A stretch of DNA of 64,000 bases from an uncultured Devosia sp. (GTDB lineage Bacteria; Pseudomonadota; Alphaproteobacteria; Rhizobiales; Hyphomicrobiaceae): positions 88,724 through 152,723 of the forward strand of contig CAZCGE010000134.1 in assembly GCA_964498125.1 (NCBI GenBank). The letters are read 5' to 3'. The notes beneath the pieces are model-generated. The model saw nothing but the letters and a program-made list of their open reading frames with translations. It made no database searches and was not told where the DNA came from. This document shows positions 4,215 to 64,000 of the stretch, piece by piece. The position numbers were made by a program, and so were the translations under genes. The stretch's first letter is position 1. Each line of letters opens with the position of its first letter.

Positions 4215-4400
4215 GGGTCTGAAACGAAAGAAACGCGCCAAGACCTCGGTGCCGGGCAAACTTCCCAGGTCCGCCTACGCATCTTCCTCTACCTTTTACG
4301 CGTTACGTTATAACATTACATCGCAGTAGGCAGGGGCTGCAATGGCATCGGCGGGCGACGGCTTTCGTCATCGAGGGTCAGCGCAGCTGGTGTTTGGCTG
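4215..4400. repeat. 186-bp non-coding intergenic element, copy A. It has a ~88% identical second copy at 52344-52529.
   Basis: Direct comparison of GGGTCTGAAACGAAAGAAACGCGCCAAGACCTCGGTGCCGGGCAAACT...CGTCATCGAGGGTCAGCGCAGCTGGTGTTTGGCTG with the second locus shows near-identity. No coding frame is conserved between the copies. It is flanked by CCATGCTCC at 4198-4206 and 4404-4412. Confidence 0.8.
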
Positions 4401-9338: not shown

Positions 9339-9504
9339 GCAACAGTCGCCCTCGGCAACAGCCAGGCGGGCATTCACGGAATTTTATCAGCAATCAGCAT
9401 TTATTGCGGTGCGGAAGCTATTGCTGCACTGCAATATGACTGCTATGATCGAGCTGCCCGGGCTCGATGACCGTTGTCCTGGAAAAAAGAAGGCGTGCCT
9501 GCTG

Positions 9505-10131
9505 ATGTTTGATCCCTTCATGCCACTGCAACTGGCGCAGGCCGCATCCCGACTGATGCTACACAATACCGCGTCCTCAATGGCATTGTGGACGGACGCA
9601 ACCAGGCAATCGACCGCGTACTGGGCCAATGTGGCGAATACCGCGGCAAATGACCTGACGCCGGCCGCACTGCGCCGCAAGACGACGCGGTCCTGGTATC
9701 GCCACCCAGATGCGATCGCGTCGCCGTTCCCCTTTGTCGCGACGGCATGGTCACCGTTTCAACCCTTCGCCGAGCCGATGGCGGCCATGATGCGCGCGGC
9801 GCCCGCCATGCCGTTCATGTCCGCGTTCATGGGCCCAGCGACAGGCATCTTCGCCCCCCAGGTGGCGGCGCCCTTCGACCTGATGGCGCCCTGGCAGGCT
9901 TGGCTGCGCCTGTTTCCTCGCCCCTCCGGCATACCCGCATGGCCCATGGCGGCGGTGCTGATGGCCGCCGGCATGCCGCAACGCGCTGCCTGGCCCACGG
10001 CTGAGGCCAGCGCCCACGTCATCGCCGCAGCGCAGCAGACTGCCAAGGGCGTCGAGGAGATGTTCGCCAGCTACCGGTCCGAAGGCGGCCACGCGCAGGT
10101 CCTGATCGGCCGGTCCGGTCGCGTTCACTAG
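9505..10131 (+). CDS. Hypothetical protein rich in Met/Pro/Ala/Phe. The start is uncertain; an alternative ATG lies at 9409.
   Basis: A long ORF in an otherwise gene-free span with protein-like composition. I recognise no family. Confidence 0.35.
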   Translation: MFDPFMPLQLAQAASRLMLHNTASSMALWTDATRQSTAYWANVANTAANDLTPAALRRKTTRSWYRHPDAIASPFPFVATAWSPFQPFAEPMAAMMRAAPAMPFMSAFMGPATGIFAPQVAAPFDLMAPWQAWLRLFPRPSGIPAWPMAAVLMAAGMPQRAAWPTAEASAHVIAAAQQTAKGVEEMFASYRSEGGHAQVLIGRSGRVH

Positions 10132-18378: not shown

Positions 18379-18405
18379 GGGGTCAGACCCGCAGGGTCTG
18401 ACCCC
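18379..18405. repeat. REP-like perfect palindrome GGGGTCAGACCC-GCA-GGGTCTGACCCC between two operon genes
   Basis: Perfect 12-bp arms. Related copies of GGGGTCAGACCC occur at 63028-63053 and 35493-35544. Confidence 0.7.
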
Positions 18406-35470: not shown

Positions 35471-35654
35471 GTACGATGTCGGCGGATCGGTCGGGGTCAG
35501 ACGCGTCCCGCCGGAGGCGGGTGCAAGAAAGGAGGGTCAGACCCAGTGTGCGCATGTAGGTTGGGTCAAGCAAGCGCGAAGCGCGGTAGTGTCTCAGTTT
35601 GAAATCTAGCCAGGTTGCCAGGGGTGTCGCCCGCTGCCGCGAAGCACTATATGC

Positions 35655-52343: not shown

Positions 52344-52529
52344 GGGTCTGAAACGAAAGAAACGCGCCAAGACCTCGGTGCCGGGCAAACTCCCCAGGTC
52401 CACCTATGCACATTCCCCTGCTTTTGGAATGTTACGTTATAACGTTGCATATCTGAAGGCAGGGGTTGCAATTGCATCGGCGGGCGACTGCTTTCGTCAT
52501 CGAGGGTCAGCACAGCTGGTGTTTGGCTG
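52344..52529. repeat. 186-bp non-coding intergenic element, copy B (paralogue of 4215-4400)
   Basis: Same length and orientation as copy A. Contains the palindrome ACGTTATAACGT. Lies between the cbpA stop and the convergent benzoate-CoA ligase stop. Short CATCGC repeats flank it. Confidence 0.8.
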
Positions 52530-57881: not shown

Positions 57882-57916
57882 GGTGCCAGGAAGCGTGAGT
57901 GGTGAGTGGTGGAAGT

Positions 57917-58008
57917 GCAGTGGGATGTCGGAAATCGGAATTCAGAAGTCGGAAACCATACGGTACTCGAATTTCCGATTTCCGACTTCCGATTTCCCAC
58001 TGCACTGC
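57917..58008. promoter_or_regulatory. ~92-bp imperfect palindrome with heptamer repeats (TCGGAAA / TTTCCGA) between livK and livH
   Basis: Left arm GCAGTGGGATGTCGGAAATCGGAATTCAGAAGTCGGAAACC. Right arm TCGAATTTCCGATTTCCGACTTCCGATTTCCCACTGCACTGC. It lies inside the operon, directly downstream of the binding-protein gene. Confidence 0.55.
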
Positions 58009-58023
58009 ACGTCACGCCTGCAC

Positions 58024-59304: not shown

Positions 59305-60534
59305 TCAATACGTTTCGACATGATAGCGCCCCTCGGCGCGCATGTGCGGTTTGATCGCGGCCCAGTCGAGGCCGGCGCCGCGGCAGATATCGGCGAGCGC
59401 CTCGTCGACGCCGGCTTCCATCCCTTTCAGGCCACAGATGTAAATGTGGGTCTTGGCCTTGCGCAAGAGGGCAGTCAGGCGCCCGACCTCGACACGCATG
59501 CGGTCCTGCACGTATTCCTTGGGCCTGTCCTTGACGCGTGAGAAGACGAGATGCTGCTCGAGCAGGCTCGTCGGAACCTTCTGCAGCGGGCCGAAGTAGG
59601 GCAGCTCCTCGGGCGTGCGGGCGCCAAAATACAGCACCAGTCGGCCCGCGGCATCGGTCGGGCCTCGACGGCGGCGCTCGGTGAAGGCGCGAAACGGCGC
59701 CGAACCGGTGCCAGTGCAGATCATGACAATGTCGGCGTCGGGATCATTCGGCATCAGGAAGGTGGCGCCGAACGGCCCGGTCACGTGCACCTCGTCACCG
59801 ACCTTCAGGTCACGCATGTAGGTCGAGCCAACGCCGCCTGGCACGTGCTTGATGGTGAGGCTGACGTTGTTGGCGCCGCGTTTCTCCCCGTCGCGCGCCG
59901 AGGCAATCGAGTAGAGGCGGATGTCGTGCGGCCGGCCGTCGGCGCGCGTGCCCGGCGGGACGATGCCGATCGACTGGCCCTCCAGCACCGGCACCACGGC
60001 ATTGCCAAATGACAGCACGATGTGGCGCACGTCGCTCTCCGCGCTCGCCGCCGTGATGCGGAAGTTGCCTTGCACCGTGGCGATGGCGGGGGCGGCGCGG
60101 GTGAAAAGGTTGACCGCGGGCTTAGAGGCGGAGGCCGGCGCCACGGCCTTGCCGCCGGCCCCCTTGTGCGCCTCGGCCAGCAGCGCCTCGATCTCGGCTT
60201 CGATGGCATCGCTGCCAGCCGTTGCCGCGTCGGCCAGCTCCTCCTGCTTCGGCAGCTCGGCCCAGCCCAGCTGTTCGTCGAGCGAGAAGGCAGCCCGCAC
60301 GATGCGCCAGTTGTCGATCGAGCCGGTGGGGCAGGGTGAAATGCAGTCCATGCAGTAGTTACACTTTTCCGCGTCGACGACGTAATTGACGTCGTCGTGC
60401 GTCACCGCGCCGACCGGGCAGGTCGCTTCGCAGGTGTTGCAGCGGATGCAGATCTCGGGATCGATGAGATGCTGCTTGCGGAGGGCGGTGGGGGATGGCT
60501 CTAAGGCCTCAGTCGCAAGCATCACCGGTCTCAC
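59305..60534 (-). CDS. boxA: Benzoyl-CoA oxygenase/epoxidase reductase component BoxA (two [4Fe-4S] ferredoxin motifs plus FNR-like FAD/NADPH domain)
   Basis: The product contains ...KQHLIDPEICIRCNTCEATCPVGAVTH...KCNYCMDCISPCPTGSIDNW.... It also carries the FNR-like motifs RLYSIAS and ...MICTGTGSAPFRAF. Confidence 0.85.
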   Translation of the reverse strand: MRPVMLATEALEPSPTALRKQHLIDPEICIRCNTCEATCPVGAVTHDDVNYVVDAEKCNYCMDCISPCPTGSIDNWRIVRAAFSLDEQLGWAELPKQEELADAATAGSDAIEAEIEALLAEAHKGAGGKAVAPASASKPAVNLFTRAAPAIATVQGNFRITAASAESDVRHIVLSFGNAVVPVLEGQSIGIVPPGTRADGRPHDIRLYSIASARDGEKRGANNVSLTIKHVPGGVGSTYMRDLKVGDEVHVTGPFGATFLMPNDPDADIVMICTGTGSAPFRAFTERRRRGPTDAAGRLVLYFGARTPEELPYFGPLQKVPTSLLEQHLVFSRVKDRPKEYVQDRMRVEVGRLTALLRKAKTHIYICGLKGMEAGVDEALADICRGAGLDWAAIKPHMRAEGRYHVETY

Positions 60535-61345
60535 CGATCCGGACGAGGAAGGGAAGCTGCAGACTGGCCAGCGTTGGACGTTTGTCCATGAAGATAGAGG
60601 TCAGCTGCGGTTGTGCGTCAATAGGCTCTAATATCGCCGTTATCAGATCATTCAAGAAGCGACCCAAGTCATGCGAAGCCCCTACGATAAGGTCGTGAAA
60701 TCGCAAATGCTGCCAGTTTCTGTAGGCGCCAAAATTATCCTTGCGCCACTCTTCGTAATCCCGGCCAAACAATGAGTAGGGGTACACCAGATCCAACAAG
60801 CCAAACACTCGAGAAGCTTCGCTTGAAATATAAAGTGTGTTCCCGGTGACATGGCCCAACAACATTGAAAAATCGTCGCTCTGGACGCCCTTAACCTGCT
60901 TGCTCAGCAGCTTCTCGGTGTTGTAATGAAAGCTGAAATTGTTTCGAATCAACGACATAGGCGATCGACTTGACCTGAAATGTTTGCGTAGCCTCAGGAA
61001 GGACTTTAGCGCTTGGCGCGGAGCCTCACCACAACGCCATCGCGGATCAACAGCTCTCGGAAGAATACGATTGCATGCATCCCAGCCTTCCCAAACTTTG
61101 CCCGCAAGCAGGAGCAATGCGCAATGCCACATGACGTTTTGGGCATTTCGTTCGTGTAAGTCACCGGAGCTTTTCTCGAACCCCTGCTCGCTCACAAGTG
61201 CAAGGCGCTCAAGTAGAACAATGTCGTTGGCAATCTGAGTGGCAATCATCAATATCTTTAGATGGCTCTCCGACATACTCTGAAGGGCAGAGCCAGGATA
61301 GATCACGCTATACGCTTCGTCTTTTGGTTGCTGATTCCAGACCAT
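60509..61345 (-). CDS. Hypothetical protein of low GC (~50%) inserted between boxB and boxA (cassette 3)
   Basis: The 278 aa ORF has protein-like composition and atypical GC. No recognised family. Confidence 0.5.
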   Translation of the reverse strand: MVWNQQPKDEAYSVIYPGSALQSMSESHLKILMIATQIANDIVLLERLALVSEQGFEKSSGDLHERNAQNVMWHCALLLLAGKVWEGWDACNRILPRAVDPRWRCGEAPRQALKSFLRLRKHFRSSRSPMSLIRNNFSFHYNTEKLLSKQVKGVQSDDFSMLLGHVTGNTLYISSEASRVFGLLDLVYPYSLFGRDYEEWRKDNFGAYRNWQHLRFHDLIVGASHDLGRFLNDLITAILEPIDAQPQLTSIFMDKRPTLASLQLPFLVRIGETGDACD

Positions 61346-61451
61346 GCGAACCGATTAATCCTCCAACCCTTGCTGAGGGAGCAGACTTCCGCCCCTCACC
61401 CTAACCCTCTCACCATCGCGCGTACAGGGCGATGGTGAGAGGGGATGTCTC

Positions 61452-61490
61452 GCCCCTTCGCCACCTTCACGCAATCGAAGTCGCCCCCAA
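61452..61490 (-). repeat. Diverged copy (R3) of the boxB 3-prime terminus
   Basis: CCCCTTCGCCACCTTCACGCAATCGAAGTCGCCCCC against the authentic CCCCTTCGCCACTTTCACATACTCGAAATCGCCGCC at 63059-63095. It encodes ...GGDFDCVKVAKG with the stop lost. A perfect 15-bp-stem hairpin (CCCTCTCACCATCGC...GCGATGGTGAGAGGG) lies at 61408-61440. Confidence 0.7.
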
Positions 61491-61934
61491 TTATTGTTGT
61501 TCGATCTCGACGGTGCCGGCACCGAAGTCGAGCAGGATGAGATGAGGATAGAGCAGGCCGGTGCCGGCGAGCGCGACAGGATCGCCATCGTGAGGCGGCC
61601 TGGACCGCTCGGTGTCCGGAGCGACGAAGACGTCGACGGTCCGAGACGCGCCCATCCACGCGATCTGCGCGCGACTGGTCCAGACGTTGGTCTGACGACC
61701 GCCAGCCAATTCTACGTCTGCCTTACCATCGGAAATATCCAAGTGAAGCGCCGCGGCAACGCTTTCAGTCATGTAAAGGTCGCCATTGAATCCGGTGTCG
61801 AGCAGGGCCAAGAAGCTTTCCCTGGCAGTCACCGAGATCCGAATAAGCGGTCGCCGCCGTTCACCTATGCTTCCGAATTCAACGCCCAAAGGCCGCCTCC
61901 GAGCGTGATCGGCACGCCATGCTCGAAGGACCAA
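61491..61934 (-). CDS. Retropepsin-like (clan AA) aspartic protease domain protein (cassette 2)
   Basis: The product has the LLDTGFNGDLYMTESVAAALHLD active-site motif and a C-terminal ...GTGLLYPHLILLDFGAGTVEIE segment. Confidence 0.7.
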   Translation of the reverse strand: MVLRAWRADHARRRPLGVEFGSIGERRRPLIRISVTARESFLALLDTGFNGDLYMTESVAAALHLDISDGKADVELAGGRQTNVWTSRAQIAWMGASRTVDVFVAPDTERSRPPHDGDPVALAGTGLLYPHLILLDFGAGTVEIEQQ

Positions 61935-62308
61935 GCTGATCGACGTGCCCCGAACAAATCACCTAGTCGGTCACTCGCTGCCCAACGCTTGTTGGCAATC
62001 ACATATAGCCCGCTCGCGAAATCGACCTGCACAGCGGTGCCGTGCGCAAACTCGCGGAACCGTACCTGATGCCGCGTTCGCCACAGCTCAGCGAAGATGT
62101 GCAGGCGTGACGCGGATACGGCATCAATGGGAACGATCGGCAATCGCAAAGCCTCTGCCAAACGCGGATCGCTGCGATCAGTCACGGGCGCCCCATCGAG
62201 CAGCCCCGCACGCAGGCGGTCCCGCTCCGCCTGCACGAAGTCGCTGCCTGCGGTCGCTTCGTATGCCGTAGCGGTTTCGGCGAACCCTCCTGGGTGCGAG
62301 GTGCTCAT
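61865..62308 (-). CDS. Hypothetical protein (147 aa), partner of the retropepsin-like gene (cassette 2)
   Basis: An ORF with protein-like composition that overlaps the downstream gene by 70 bp. No recognised family. Confidence 0.45.
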   Translation of the reverse strand: MSTSHPGGFAETATAYEATAGSDFVQAERDRLRAGLLDGAPVTDRSDPRLAEALRLPIVPIDAVSASRLHIFAELWRTRHQVRFREFAHGTAVQVDFASGLYVIANKRWAASDRLGDLFGARRSAWSFEHGVPITLGGGLWALNSEA

Positions 62309-62357
62309 CGATCGCCTCCAATGCCTGTGTCGGCGTGGTCATGGGCCTCCAACCTAT

Positions 62358-62425
62358 CACCCCTTCGCCACCTTCACGTACTCGAAATCGCCGCCCTTGT
62401 TGGTGATGCAATCTTTGGTGGCGCG
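62358..62425 (-). repeat. Near-exact copy (R2) of the boxB 3-prime terminus, including the stop codon
   Basis: It encodes ...PKDCITNKGGDFEYVKVAKG* against the authentic ...PPKVGIDNKGGDFEYVKVAKG*. About 90% nucleotide identity over ~66 bp. Confidence 0.8.
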
Positions 62426-62468
62426 ATTCGATCGGACCTCACGGCGTTGACCGACCCTATTTCCCCCC

Positions 62469-62732
62469 TTATTCCGCAGCAGTGGCCTCCGCCTTTGCCT
62501 CGAGCTGTTCATGAAGCCATTGCGGTGAAAAATCGGCACCGTTGGGCCAGACGATCGTGTCGAGATCGCCATCAACGCGAAGTTTAGCGAACAGCTCGAT
62601 GCTCTTCAGTGGCTCGAACACCGTCCCCCACAGCTCATCGGCCAGATCGATCTCGCCGCTGAGGCCGTCGGCAAAGCGAAGCCAGACATTGTAGTCGCCG
62701 GCATGTCGCGCATCGATCACTTTGGGTAGCAT
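62469..62732 (-). CDS. DUF2442 family protein (cassette 1)
   Basis: The product reads MLPKVIDARHAGDYNVWLRFADGLSGEIDLADELWGTVFEPLKSIELFAKLRVDGDLDTIVWPNGADFSP, the canonical DUF2442 signature. Confidence 0.85.
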   Translation of the reverse strand: MLPKVIDARHAGDYNVWLRFADGLSGEIDLADELWGTVFEPLKSIELFAKLRVDGDLDTIVWPNGADFSPQWLHEQLEAKAEATAAE

Positions 62733-62735
62733 GTC

Positions 62736-63002
62736 TCACTCCAGCGGTGCGATTTTCTCGAAAGGCTCGCGTGCACGAATCTTCGCCCAAGCATCCTCGA
62801 GATCAGCGGTATGCAGCGGTCTCCACTCCTCGACCAGCGCCAGAACTCGCCTTGGCAGCCGTCCTTCGAGCACTCGACCGGTCGCCACATCAATCTTGGC
62901 TTTGTGCTCTCCATACTTGGCGTGAAAGTGCGACGGTGGATGGTCATTGAAATATATTGCGATGACGATACCGAAGAACCTGATGATTTCAGGCATCATC
63001 AT
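62736..63002 (-). CDS. DUF4160 family protein (cassette 1)
   Basis: The product reads MMMPEIIRFFGIVIAIYFNDHPPSHFHAKYGEHKAKIDVATGRVLEGRLPRRVLALVEEW, the canonical DUF4160 signature. It lies immediately upstream of its DUF2442 partner. Confidence 0.85.
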   Translation of the reverse strand: MMMPEIIRFFGIVIAIYFNDHPPSHFHAKYGEHKAKIDVATGRVLEGRLPRRVLALVEEWRPLHTADLEDAWAKIRAREPFEKIAPLE

Positions 63003-63057
63003 CAGCCTTGGTTGAGGCGTGGCGGAATTTGGGGTCAGACCCGCAGGACCCCGACCA

Positions 63058-64000
63058 TCACCCCTTCGCCACTTTCACATACTCGAAATCGCCGCCCTTG
63101 TTGTCGATGCCGACCTTTGGGGGCGCGATCCAGTTGGCATATTGCGCCTTCTCCCAGCACGGCTGCATCAGGCTTTCGATGAAGGCGCCGTCGTCCTTGG
63201 AGGGCAACCAGCCGTCCTTCTTCTTGTCCCACTCGATTGCCGCCATCAGTCGGCCATCAGGCGCCGACTTGACGCTCCTGAACTCGCCGATGTGGCGATG
63301 GAAGGCGACGTTGGGCAGTTTGATCTCGAATTTCACGCCCATCTTCTCGATGATCTTGTTCCAGCGGTTGATGCCGCCCTGACAGTCCCGGATGTAATCG
63401 TCGCGCAGCCGCATATTGATGGCCGACAAGGCCGGCTCGTCGACCAGCCTGGGGACGCCGCCGATCAGTTTCAGGACCGGATAGGTCGAGCTGGTCAGGA
63501 GATGGTCGTCCTCGATCTTGGTTTCCTGGAAGCGGCCCTTGAGCCCGGCGTTGTAGAAGTTCGCCGCGTTGGTCGAGACCTCCGAGCCGAACAGGTCGAG
63601 CGACAGCGCGTAATGCAAGTTGGCCTTCTTCTGCAGGGTGGGCAGGTCGACGACGCCGAGCTTGCGCACGCGCTCGATGTCGTTGGGATCCTCGATGCCG
63701 GCCTTCTTCATCGCCTCGCAGGTGCGCTCGATGACGCGGCCGACGCCGGTCTCGCCGACGAAGAGGTGATGCGCCTCCTCGGTCAGCATGAACTGGGTCG
63801 AGCGCGCGAGCGGGTCGAAGGCCGACTCGGCCAGCGCGGCGAGCTGGTACTTGCCGTCGCGGTCCGTGAACATCGTGAAGCAGAAGAACGCGAGCCAGTC
63901 CGGGCAGGGCTTGTTGAAGGCGCCGAGGATGCGCGGATGGTCCTTGTGGCCCGAGCGGCGCGTGAGCATGTCCTCCGCCTCCTCGCGCCCGTCCCTGCCG
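63058..64000 (-). CDS. boxB: Benzoyl-CoA oxygenase component B (diiron BoxB). Partial: the C-terminal ~303 aa; the N-terminus lies beyond the window end.
   Basis: The C-terminus reads ...WIAPPKVGIDNKGGDFEYVKVAKG*. It lies upstream of boxA in the operon. Confidence 0.8.
   Translation of the reverse strand, partial: GRDGREEAEDMLTRRSGHKDHPRILGAFNKPCPDWLAFFCFTMFTDRDGKYQLAALAESAFDPLARSTQFMLTEEAHHLFVGETGVGRVIERTCEAMKKAGIEDPNDIERVRKLGVVDLPTLQKKANLHYALSLDLFGSEVSTNAANFYNAGLKGRFQETKIEDDHLLTSSTYPVLKLIGGVPRLVDEPALSAINMRLRDDYIRDCQGGINRWNKIIEKMGVKFEIKLPNVAFHRHIGEFRSVKSAPDGRLMAAIEWDKKKDGWLPSKDDGAFIESLMQPCWEKAQYANWIAPPKVGIDNKGGDFEYVKVAKG

Follow-up and report, generated by a model that had tools for sequence, protein, structure and literature searches.

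Copies of the boxB 3' end among small gene modules between boxB and boxA: a locus resembling polymorphic-toxin displacement arrays

The effector-immunity arrays of the Vibrio cholerae type VI secretion system (T6SS) are built by sequential displacement, with homology-facilitated illegitimate recombination as the proposed mechanism, and contain the 3' end of the effector gene, shifted back (Kirchberger et al. 2017, PMC5361080). C-terminal displacement gives rise to the orphan arrays of Rhs and CdiA loci (Jackson et al. 2009, PMC2935791; Poole et al. 2011, PMC3150448). The dhiTA locus of Dickeya has been validated as a type II toxin-antitoxin system with the toxin gene first (PMC8198452). We describe here a locus from a 64,000-nt stretch of DNA from an uncultured Devosia sp. 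(contig CAZCGE010000134.1, positions 88,724 to 152,723; this whole stretch is hereafter referred to as the window), in which boxB and boxA, two benzoate-degradation operon genes encoding subunits B and A of benzoyl-CoA 2,3-epoxidase, are separated by three small gene modules (hereafter referred to as M1, M2 and M3) interspersed with copies of the boxB 3' end (hereafter referred to as tails).

The original prediction, made from the sequence of the window alone, took this arrangement as the signature of serial site-specific integration at an att site overlapping the 3' end of boxB, resembling either integrase-less remnants of the cis-mobilizable element (CIME) type or an unconventional cassette platform. 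The explanation that we favor, with a confidence slightly better than even, is sequential displacement by homology-facilitated illegitimate recombination, without an integrase, the displaced tails later serving as portable homology.

Copies of the boxB tail and gain or loss of modules

On the minus strand, the order of the elements is boxB, a palindrome of the repetitive extragenic palindromic (REP) type, the DUF4160 and DUF2442 genes (M1), a spacer, the tail copy R2, the partner gene and the retropepsin-like gene (M2), the tail copy R3, a hairpin, an orphan gene (M3) and boxA. A repeat search of the insert and of the whole window yielded one three-copy family, the only one in the 64 kb, at positions 63057-63110, 62356-62409 and 61449-61502. 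The first two copies are 93% identical over 54 nt, and the third is 74% identical. The first belongs to R1, the tail of boxB itself and the functional source of the family (last 72 nt and stop codon; 63058-63132, minus strand). In local alignments of the boxB tail against the insert, the relic R2 (62349-62427, minus strand; -72 to +7) matched R1 at 65 of 73 positions (89%), with one 1-nt deletion, an intact stop codon and a z score of 40 versus shuffled sequences. The older relic R3 (61450-61490, minus strand; -41 to the stop) was recovered in an alignment spanning 61511-61450 (z=13.6, about 79% identity), with TGA changed to CGA. Chance resemblance between boxB and the 3' end of the retropepsin-like gene allows the alignment to extend as far as 61511; the portion truly derived from boxB is limited to about 61490-61450, and the remainder is the native 3' end of the retropepsin-like gene. 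No fourth tail copy was detected by local alignment within or after M3.

The boxB terminus is, therefore, repeated twice much as originally described (R2 about 90% identical with its stop, R3 about 80% identical without it), the copy closer to boxA is the more decayed, and the coordinates, gene identities and differences in GC content given for the locus were essentially correct, as judged from the repeat and profile searches and the GC computation. Direct repeats with the boxB 3' end flank both M1 (R1/R2) and M2 (R2/R3), and no copy lies on the side of M3 that faces boxA. All three tails of the window are of the VAKG type, with no allele mismatch between the relics and the live boxB in the window itself.

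It is most improbable that these repeats arose through faulty assembly or through the joining of co-assembled strains into a chimera. The source is probably a metagenome-assembled genome (MAG), and short-read contigs do break at R2, as illustrated by the Logan contig L081 (SRR9952630), which begins inside this copy. However, L081 is an independent assembly that is 100% identical to positions 62402-60428 of the window, from the right part of R2 through M2, R3 and M3 to the start of boxA; the stretch from R2 to boxA is, therefore, not an artefact. In addition, R2 and R3 are diverged copies with insertions and deletions rather than identical k-mer joins, and homologous architectures were found in three related loci (L018, L163 and L173) from unrelated samples. 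The repeats can thus be considered real, given the repeat search, the z scores and the identity of L081.

Related loci were collected by two collection scans, with a maximum BoxB identity of 75%, and a protein search provided one relative at 81% (P0179). About 95 related loci have boxA downstream of boxB; in about 75 of these, the gap between the two genes was shorter than 290 nt, and many gaps were of 5-40 nt, consistent with the statement that boxB and boxA are normally adjacent. With one exception, gaps of 0.3-1.8 kb were confined to the Hyphomicrobiaceae-type (Hyphomicrobiales) clade closest to the window. P0179 (GCA_041443025.1), the closest BoxB relative, shares the last 24 residues of the window protein (...VKVAKG); its gene calls, the only data used for this locus, give the order boxC, boxB, 138 nt, boxA and transporter, with thyA, folA and Band_7 genes upstream, and it therefore provides the empty site for which a check had been proposed.

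The content of the filled sites varies. M1 is accompanied by an ORF resembling domain 3 of EF-Tu (EF-Tu-D3) in L003, and L001 has only a DUF2442 remnant. M2 is present in L013 and L019, accompanied by an EF-Tu-D3-like gene in L165-168, by an isochorismatase gene in L174 and by a membrane-protein gene in L162; L002 has two copies (M2a and M2b) and an EF-Tu-D3-like gene. Other loci carry small partner-like proteins, DUF305 or other genes. Of the six M2 contexts examined, five are located in the boxB-boxA interval, the exception being that of L169-172. Since most loci are near-adjacent, the closest relative is empty and module content differs between relatives, the boxB-boxA spacer is a hot spot of insertion (gain or loss) in one Hyphomicrobiales clade, and the insert of the window is accessory DNA rather than a fixed ancient feature.

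Junctions, alleles and exchange of modules

Tail copies were also found in relatives. L018 and L163 both have the order boxB-M1-tail-M2-boxA, with a 69-nt copy identical to the end of the resident boxB at 68 of 69 positions in L018, and a 73-nt copy identical to its own boxB tail at about 63 of 64 positions in L163. L173 contains a shuffled array, boxB-M1a-(truncated tail)-M2'-Ra-REP-M1b-spacer-Rb-M3'-boxA, in which Ra and Rb are tail copies and the truncated tail after M1a is a 10-nt match only. Apart from these loci and a probable decayed copy in L002, the loci bearing M1 or M2 contain no displaced tail. In L163 (4340-4435) and L018 (about 9454-9531), the relic tail lies within a short open frame that starts at the DUF2442 stop and ends at the retained TGA; this frame has an ATG start and 31 codons in L163, and a TTG start and about 25 codons in L018.

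Under sequential displacement, small modules of a selfish or defense type, devoid of an integrase, would be gained, lost and swapped at this spacer. An incoming allele, consisting of boxB and its own downstream module, would recombine homologously in or upstream of the resident boxB. Its other end would join illegitimately, at a microhomology, within the terminal 40-100 nt of the boxB already in place, and the resident tail and modules would be shifted towards boxA rather than replaced. In the window, M3 would have been the resident module, followed by the arrival of M2, leaving R3, and then of M1, leaving R2, an order in agreement with the more advanced decay of R3. Old modules would plausibly be retained, since the loss of a toxin-antitoxin module may be lethal or costly (addiction). 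The tails would then provide portable homology, both for gene conversion with the live boxB end and for precise deletion, insertion or exchange of modules without a dedicated recombinase, and movement driven by such homology, as proposed here, would account for the near-confinement of M1 and M2 to the boxB-boxA locus. The pathway of recombination, the direction in which it ran and a part played by addiction are all inferred.

The left boundaries of the tail copies differ: -74 at the junction of M1 and R2 (also in L018 and L163), -41 at the junction of M2 and R3, and -100 for Ra of L173. The native sequence downstream of M2 is available from L162 (TAATTGGGAGCGAAGTG). At the join between M2 and R3, the window reads TAATTGGGGGCGA, followed by CTTCGA..., and includes a GGGnGCGA patch shared with boxB (AAGGGCGGCGATTTCGAG). 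As this patch is common to boxB and to the native downstream flank of M2 in L162, the join is a microhomology junction on GGGnGCGA. Moreover, R2 together with M2 (62409-61481) is collinear with the real boxB end and M2 of L162 (85.5% identity over 929 nt). This continuous alignment places R2 where a boxB end formerly stood, and L162, in which the boxB end is directly followed by M2, would represent the surviving ancestral state.

These junctions bear directly on the site-specific interpretation, according to which M1 and M2 would be CIME-like miniature cassettes moved by a tyrosine or serine recombinase acting in trans on an att site in the last 40 nt or so of boxB, each cassette carrying a replacement tail and the displaced tails decaying thereafter. 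This model accommodates several of the observations: direct repeats of the target 3' end flank M1 and M2; three tails for three modules, with M3 resident and R3 more decayed than R2, fit serial insertion; the tail associated with M1 is similarly bounded in the window, L018, L163 and L173; and M1 and M2 are almost always found at this locus. Among islands targeting tRNA genes, moreover, different elements are known to carry different lengths of target homology. Nevertheless, a shared att boundary is difficult to reconcile with copies starting at -100, -74 and -41, one of them on a microhomology with non-boxB sequence, and the same modules also occur without a displaced tail: none accompanies M2 in L162, L013, L019, L165 and L174, or M1 in L003. 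Modules consisting of two ORFs and 10-40 nt are too small to accommodate recombinase-binding arms beyond the boxB-derived sequence. Pfam scanning identified no recombinase gene in the 20 kb downstream in the window (ten downstream genes; the rest of the genome was not searched), and Pfam annotations indicated none within 5-6 kb on either side of the locus in L162, L163, L165, L174 and GCA_041443025.1. In view of these findings, together with the allele mismatch and the tail homogenization reported below and the lack of an attC-like fold, we regard serial integration by such an enzyme as rather unlikely, and the att/integrase part of the original prediction, whether as a CIME or as a cassette platform, was not sustained. 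A related possibility, which we consider very doubtful, is that the boxB terminus is the target of a new mobilization system without an integrase in cis, based on a recombinase in trans or on an activity encoded by the modules, which would rebuild the gene while homing toxin-antitoxin cassettes of less than one kilobase. If so, it would constitute a miniature cassette platform of a new kind, distinct from integrons.

The alleles of L173 provide further information consistent with sequential displacement. The relic Ra (ending VKVAKA*) is identical to R1 of the window at 68 of 75 positions (91%), versus 59 of 75 (79%) for the end of the boxB of L173 itself, a relic that differs in allele from the resident gene and is at odds with integration into that gene. 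The BoxB protein of L173 shares 83% identity with the L162 type and 67% with that of the window. Because the relic is of the window type and the resident BoxB of the L162 type, the boxB allele of L173 has probably been exchanged together with its modules, and the mismatch fits allele replacement by homologous recombination. The segment containing tail, REP palindrome, M1, spacer and tail is collinear between the window (63132-62363) and L173 (1826-2616), with 84% identity over 792 nt, and positions 61485-61428 of the window align with 2587-2644 of L173. Rb is thus a composite of the left part of R2, with its spacer, and the right part of R3, with its flank, and M2 is, therefore, present in the window and absent from L173 exactly between tail copies. 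This pattern is also expected if an integrase is involved. The extra boxB tails mark successive events, the copy closer to boxA being the more decayed, as originally proposed.

In L018 and L163, boxB is 87% identical at the nucleotide level and M1 81-83%, indicating that both inherited the M1-tail unit vertically. Each tail nonetheless carries the boxB substitutions of its own genome (GTCAAG/CGCGGG versus GTGAAG/CGGGGG). This co-variation despite common descent indicates that the tails have been homogenized with their own boxB by gene conversion, whereas displaced att copies would be expected to decay. By contrast, the identities of M2 and BoxB disagree. The retropepsin-like proteins of the window and L162 are 83% identical (87% at the nucleotide level), versus 73% for BoxB; those of L018 and L163 are only 45% identical, versus 91% for BoxB. 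This discordance shows, at the level of sequence identity, that M2 has been exchanged horizontally within the locus. In-situ tandem duplication was considered as the sole origin of the array and rejected: the modules between the tails are unrelated, and M2 is closer to that of L162 than boxB is.

The evidence for gene conversion is also compatible with a purely homology-driven process, in which a module-tail unit arose once and has since moved only by RecA recombination between tails (Campbell-type or double crossover), with no further illegitimate events. The M1-spacer-tail junction, which seems to have been inherited as a unit, the presence or absence of M2 between tails, and the restriction of the modules to this locus all speak for such a process. 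However, at least three different junction positions each require a non-homologous event, and stretches of 40-75 nt at 80-90% identity would recombine poorly between lineages. We therefore judge this explanation unlikely as a complete account; it overlaps with the second half of sequential displacement, without replacing it.

Several points weigh against sequential displacement. In three distant genomes (the window, L018 and L163), the tail associated with M1 has almost the same starting point (-66 to -74) and is followed by TGA-TAGG. We attribute this shared boundary to common descent of the M1-tail unit combined with conversion, although it could be accounted for just as well by a fixed att boundary. 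L002 has a suggestive decayed tail after M2a, starting near -42, although the signal is weak (p~0.004). The direction of stacking is deduced solely from the relative decay of R2 and R3, and M3, the oldest module under this model, has the most deviant GC content. Addiction and toxin-antitoxin activity are presumed for these particular modules. Finally, all the comparator loci are MAG or metagenome contigs, and the inspection for recombinases covered the window and short flanks of relatives rather than whole genomes. L173, in particular, is a single 3.6-kb Logan contig, for which a chimera is possible in principle; its junctions do not lie in sequence common to the putative parents.

Cargo genes, palindromes and other repeats

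Within the window, boxB is represented by its 3' 303 codons (63058-64000, minus strand, running past the end of the window; TIGR03225, 3e-145), and boxA lies at 59305-60522 (minus strand; TIGR03224, 1e-169). ABC-transporter genes and a gene of the benzoate-CoA ligase type lie downstream of boxA. The modules consist of an ORF pair or a single ORF with an additional 10-40 nt, and contain no remnants of transfer or mobilization functions from integrative and conjugative elements (ICEs) or integrative and mobilizable elements (IMEs). GC content was 0.507 for the orphan gene, 0.543 for DUF4160, 0.58 for DUF2442, 0.61 for the retropepsin-like gene, 0.628 for the partner gene and 0.668 for boxA, versus 0.636 for the window. 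A scan of the insert for promoters and terminators gave nothing on the coding strand, a result that is compatible with read-through from the box operon and proves nothing. No module had a significant match to any PADLOC family.

The three cargo modules had been presented as a DUF4160/DUF2442 pair, a retropepsin-like protease with a partner, and an orphan. The first and last of these assignments stood, with both DUF genes above the Pfam cut-offs and the orphan without a family; the protease was matched only below the cut-offs. M1 comprises a putative toxin of 88 amino acids (DUF4160/DhiT-like; 62736-63002, minus strand; PF13711, 1.3e-19; toxin_DhiT, 6e-20) followed, after a 3-nt gap, by a putative antitoxin of 87 amino acids (DUF2442/DhiA-like; 62469-62732, minus strand; PF10387, 3e-10). 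The Pfam scores of 70.6 and 40.6 bits exceed the gathering cut-offs. The best NCBIfam matches are DhiT and DhiA, at 72 and 30 bits, below the equivalog cut-offs of 100 and 200, and M1 is, therefore, best described as a putative DhiT/DhiA-like toxin-antitoxin pair. Homologues of the DUF4160 protein begin at the third ATG (MPEI...), and the protein is about 90% identical, as estimated by eye, to that of M1b in L173. The 41-nt spacer between the DUF2442 stop and R2 (62428-62468, minus strand) is homologous to the spacer preceding Rb in L173.

In M2, the partner gene (61865-62308, minus strand; 147 amino acids) overlaps the next gene and occurs as long and short variants among relatives; no family match was obtained for its product in Pfam and NCBIfam profile searches. 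The second gene (61491-61934, minus strand) encodes a candidate retropepsin-like aspartic protease of clan AA, with a DTG motif (ALLDTGFNG) and 22 homologues. Its profile matches are Asp_protease_2 (PF13650; 2.4e-4, 22.2 bits for a cut-off of 24.3) and TIGR03698 (5e-7, 30 bits for a cut-off of 57). Its start is likely to be near 61889 (132 amino acids), as called in L081 and L162. In L169 (4022-4797) and also in L170-L172, the partner-retropepsin pair lies outside the box operon, with no flanking repeat, placed between a divergent FAA_hydrolase gene and an aromatic-catabolism cluster of the zf-ChsH2/Rieske (LigXa) type.

M3 (60509-61345, minus strand; GC 0.51) encodes an all-alpha orphan protein of 278 amino acids, and its stop overlaps the start of boxA. 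Sequence searches against Pfam, NCBIfam, PADLOC and the PDB gave no match, and a fold search likewise gave no placement. In addition to a single close homologue, the family has about 190 remote members (about 250 amino acids), with the invariant residues N40, R134 and H140 (IRNxxxFH, with R-x5-H spacing). This pattern hints at a possible relationship with HEPN nucleases.

Two further types of small gene were observed in relatives. Stand-alone proteins of about 100-114 amino acids, with a match solely to the C-terminal domain 3 of EF-Tu, recur as cargo directly upstream of boxA in several relatives (L002, 10625-10951; L003, about 9470-9790; L016, 9290-9583; L165, 1536-1880), with PF03143 matches of 2.4e-7 for L002 and 6.9e-5 for L165, the ORFs of L003 and L016 being grouped with them by eye. 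A second insertion point for small genes lies between boxC and boxB, with a 124-amino-acid protein resembling 23S_rRNA_IVP/bAvd in L162 (1446-1820) and a 97-amino-acid ORF in L163 (1581-1874).

Between the boxB stop and the DUF4160 start, a motif search identified the REP-type palindrome (GGGTCWGACCC; 63028-63053), with GGGGTCAGACCC at 63031-63042. The palindrome is over-represented in the window, with five matches versus 0.37 expected, at 18379-18405, 35493-35544 and 63031-63042. In L173, a related copy lies between Ra and M1b, at a position equivalent to that in the window; it is not present at this position in L018, L163 and L003, in which DUF4160 starts 8-10 nt past the boxB stop. A similar palindrome is found downstream of boxB in L016. 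The hairpin between R3 and M3 (61405-61443) has perfect 15-nt arms, is followed by GGGTTAGGGTGAGGGGCG and occurs nowhere else in the window; the flank that follows Rb in L173 is homologous to its first arm. A large, near-perfect palindrome at 57915-58010 (GTGCAGTGGGATGTCGGAAATCGGAA ... TTCCGATTTCCCACTGCAC), with arms of roughly 40 nt, is located in the spacer that separates the gene for the periplasmic-binding protein from the first permease gene, within the ABC transporter genes downstream of boxA. Rfam gave no match anywhere in the window, this palindrome included. The longest repeat of the window is a direct repeat of 186 nt (4215-4400 and 52344-52529; 88% identical), with copies 48 kb apart.

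Comparison with known systems

The relationships of the array with previously described systems can be considered in turn. Chromosomal integron arrays also consist of compact, promoterless cassettes in one orientation, often carrying toxin-antitoxin modules, with a repeated element between them. Neither of the features that define integrons is present here, however. There is no intI gene or IntI product and no attI, the array being headed by boxB (and this gene being preceded, in the closest relative, by boxC, thyA and folA); and the repeat corresponds to the coding 3' end of boxB, in copies differing in extent, for which DNA folding revealed no attC-like imperfect palindrome in R1 or R2 on either strand (z scores of -0.73 to +0.13 versus shuffles). 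Comparison of the boxB tail by eye with the dif/Xer site yielded a resemblance limited to the half corresponding to the XerD arm. An integron-type array in which the repeat acts as attC can be considered effectively refuted, with next to no probability left to it.

CIME tandem accretion at the 3' end of a protein or tRNA gene (reviewed in PMC5704250) likewise produces tandem arrays, with a reconstituted target gene and direct repeats with the target 3' end. CIMEs are decayed ICEs or IMEs of several kilobases, with defined attL and attR sites and an integrase provided by a neighboring element, whereas the modules described here are only 0.6-0.9 kb long, vary in their boundaries, show no integrase or transfer remnant and, in many copies, lack a flanking repeat. 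Three of the four testable features of accretion (a fixed att site, a cognate integrase and derivation from an ICE or IME) were not found at this locus. On present evidence, the array is not a new class of mobile element.

M1 shares its domain pair, toxin-first order and tight spacing with DhiT/DhiA of Dickeya dadantii (PMC8198452), but the sequences are distant, below the equivalog cut-offs, the antitoxin is half the length and the activity of M1 is putative.

The array shows a likeness to the T6SS arrays (PMC5361080), in which there is also a conserved upstream anchor gene, new modules enter beside the anchor and old ones are shifted downstream, the anchor 3' end may shift along with them, no integrase is known and retention is ascribed to selection on the old modules. 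The arrays differ in several respects. The anchor here is the catabolic enzyme gene boxB rather than a toxin or delivery gene, and the cargo consists of toxin-antitoxin-like pairs and single genes rather than effector-immunity pairs. Retention would be due to addiction and not to kin immunity, and the relic tails are also homogenized by gene conversion. In the orphan arrays of Rhs and CdiA, each displaced module is similarly preceded by a short 3' fragment of the anchor gene, usable as homology in later events. However, that fragment belongs to a fused polymorphic toxin, the tip of which is swapped by recombination, whereas the boxB tail encodes nothing used by the modules, BoxB being a complete and conserved enzyme and the modules separate ORFs. 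The locus thus displays a conserved anchor with variable downstream modules, relic 3' fragments with variable junctions and microhomology, and, in L173, an allele mismatch, but the displaced unit is not the toxic tip of the anchor protein with an immunity gene. The array works like the polymorphic-toxin displacement arrays but belongs to neither the T6SS nor the Rhs family, since its anchor gene encodes an intact enzyme and each module has ORFs of its own.

The array illustrates, at nucleotide resolution, how very small selfish modules can build up within a functioning catabolic operon with no mobile-element machinery. The displaced gene tails would record the order of events and then become portable homology for shuffling, deletion and re-acquisition, and addiction, by penalizing replacement, may explain why such stacks expand instead of turning over. 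Relic 3' ends of core genes between small ORF pairs can serve as a practical signature of integrase-free hot spots in metagenomes. Sequential displacement, as known from the T6SS, Rhs and contact-dependent inhibition (CDI) polymorphic-toxin loci, would thereby extend to toxin-antitoxin modules beside a metabolic gene.

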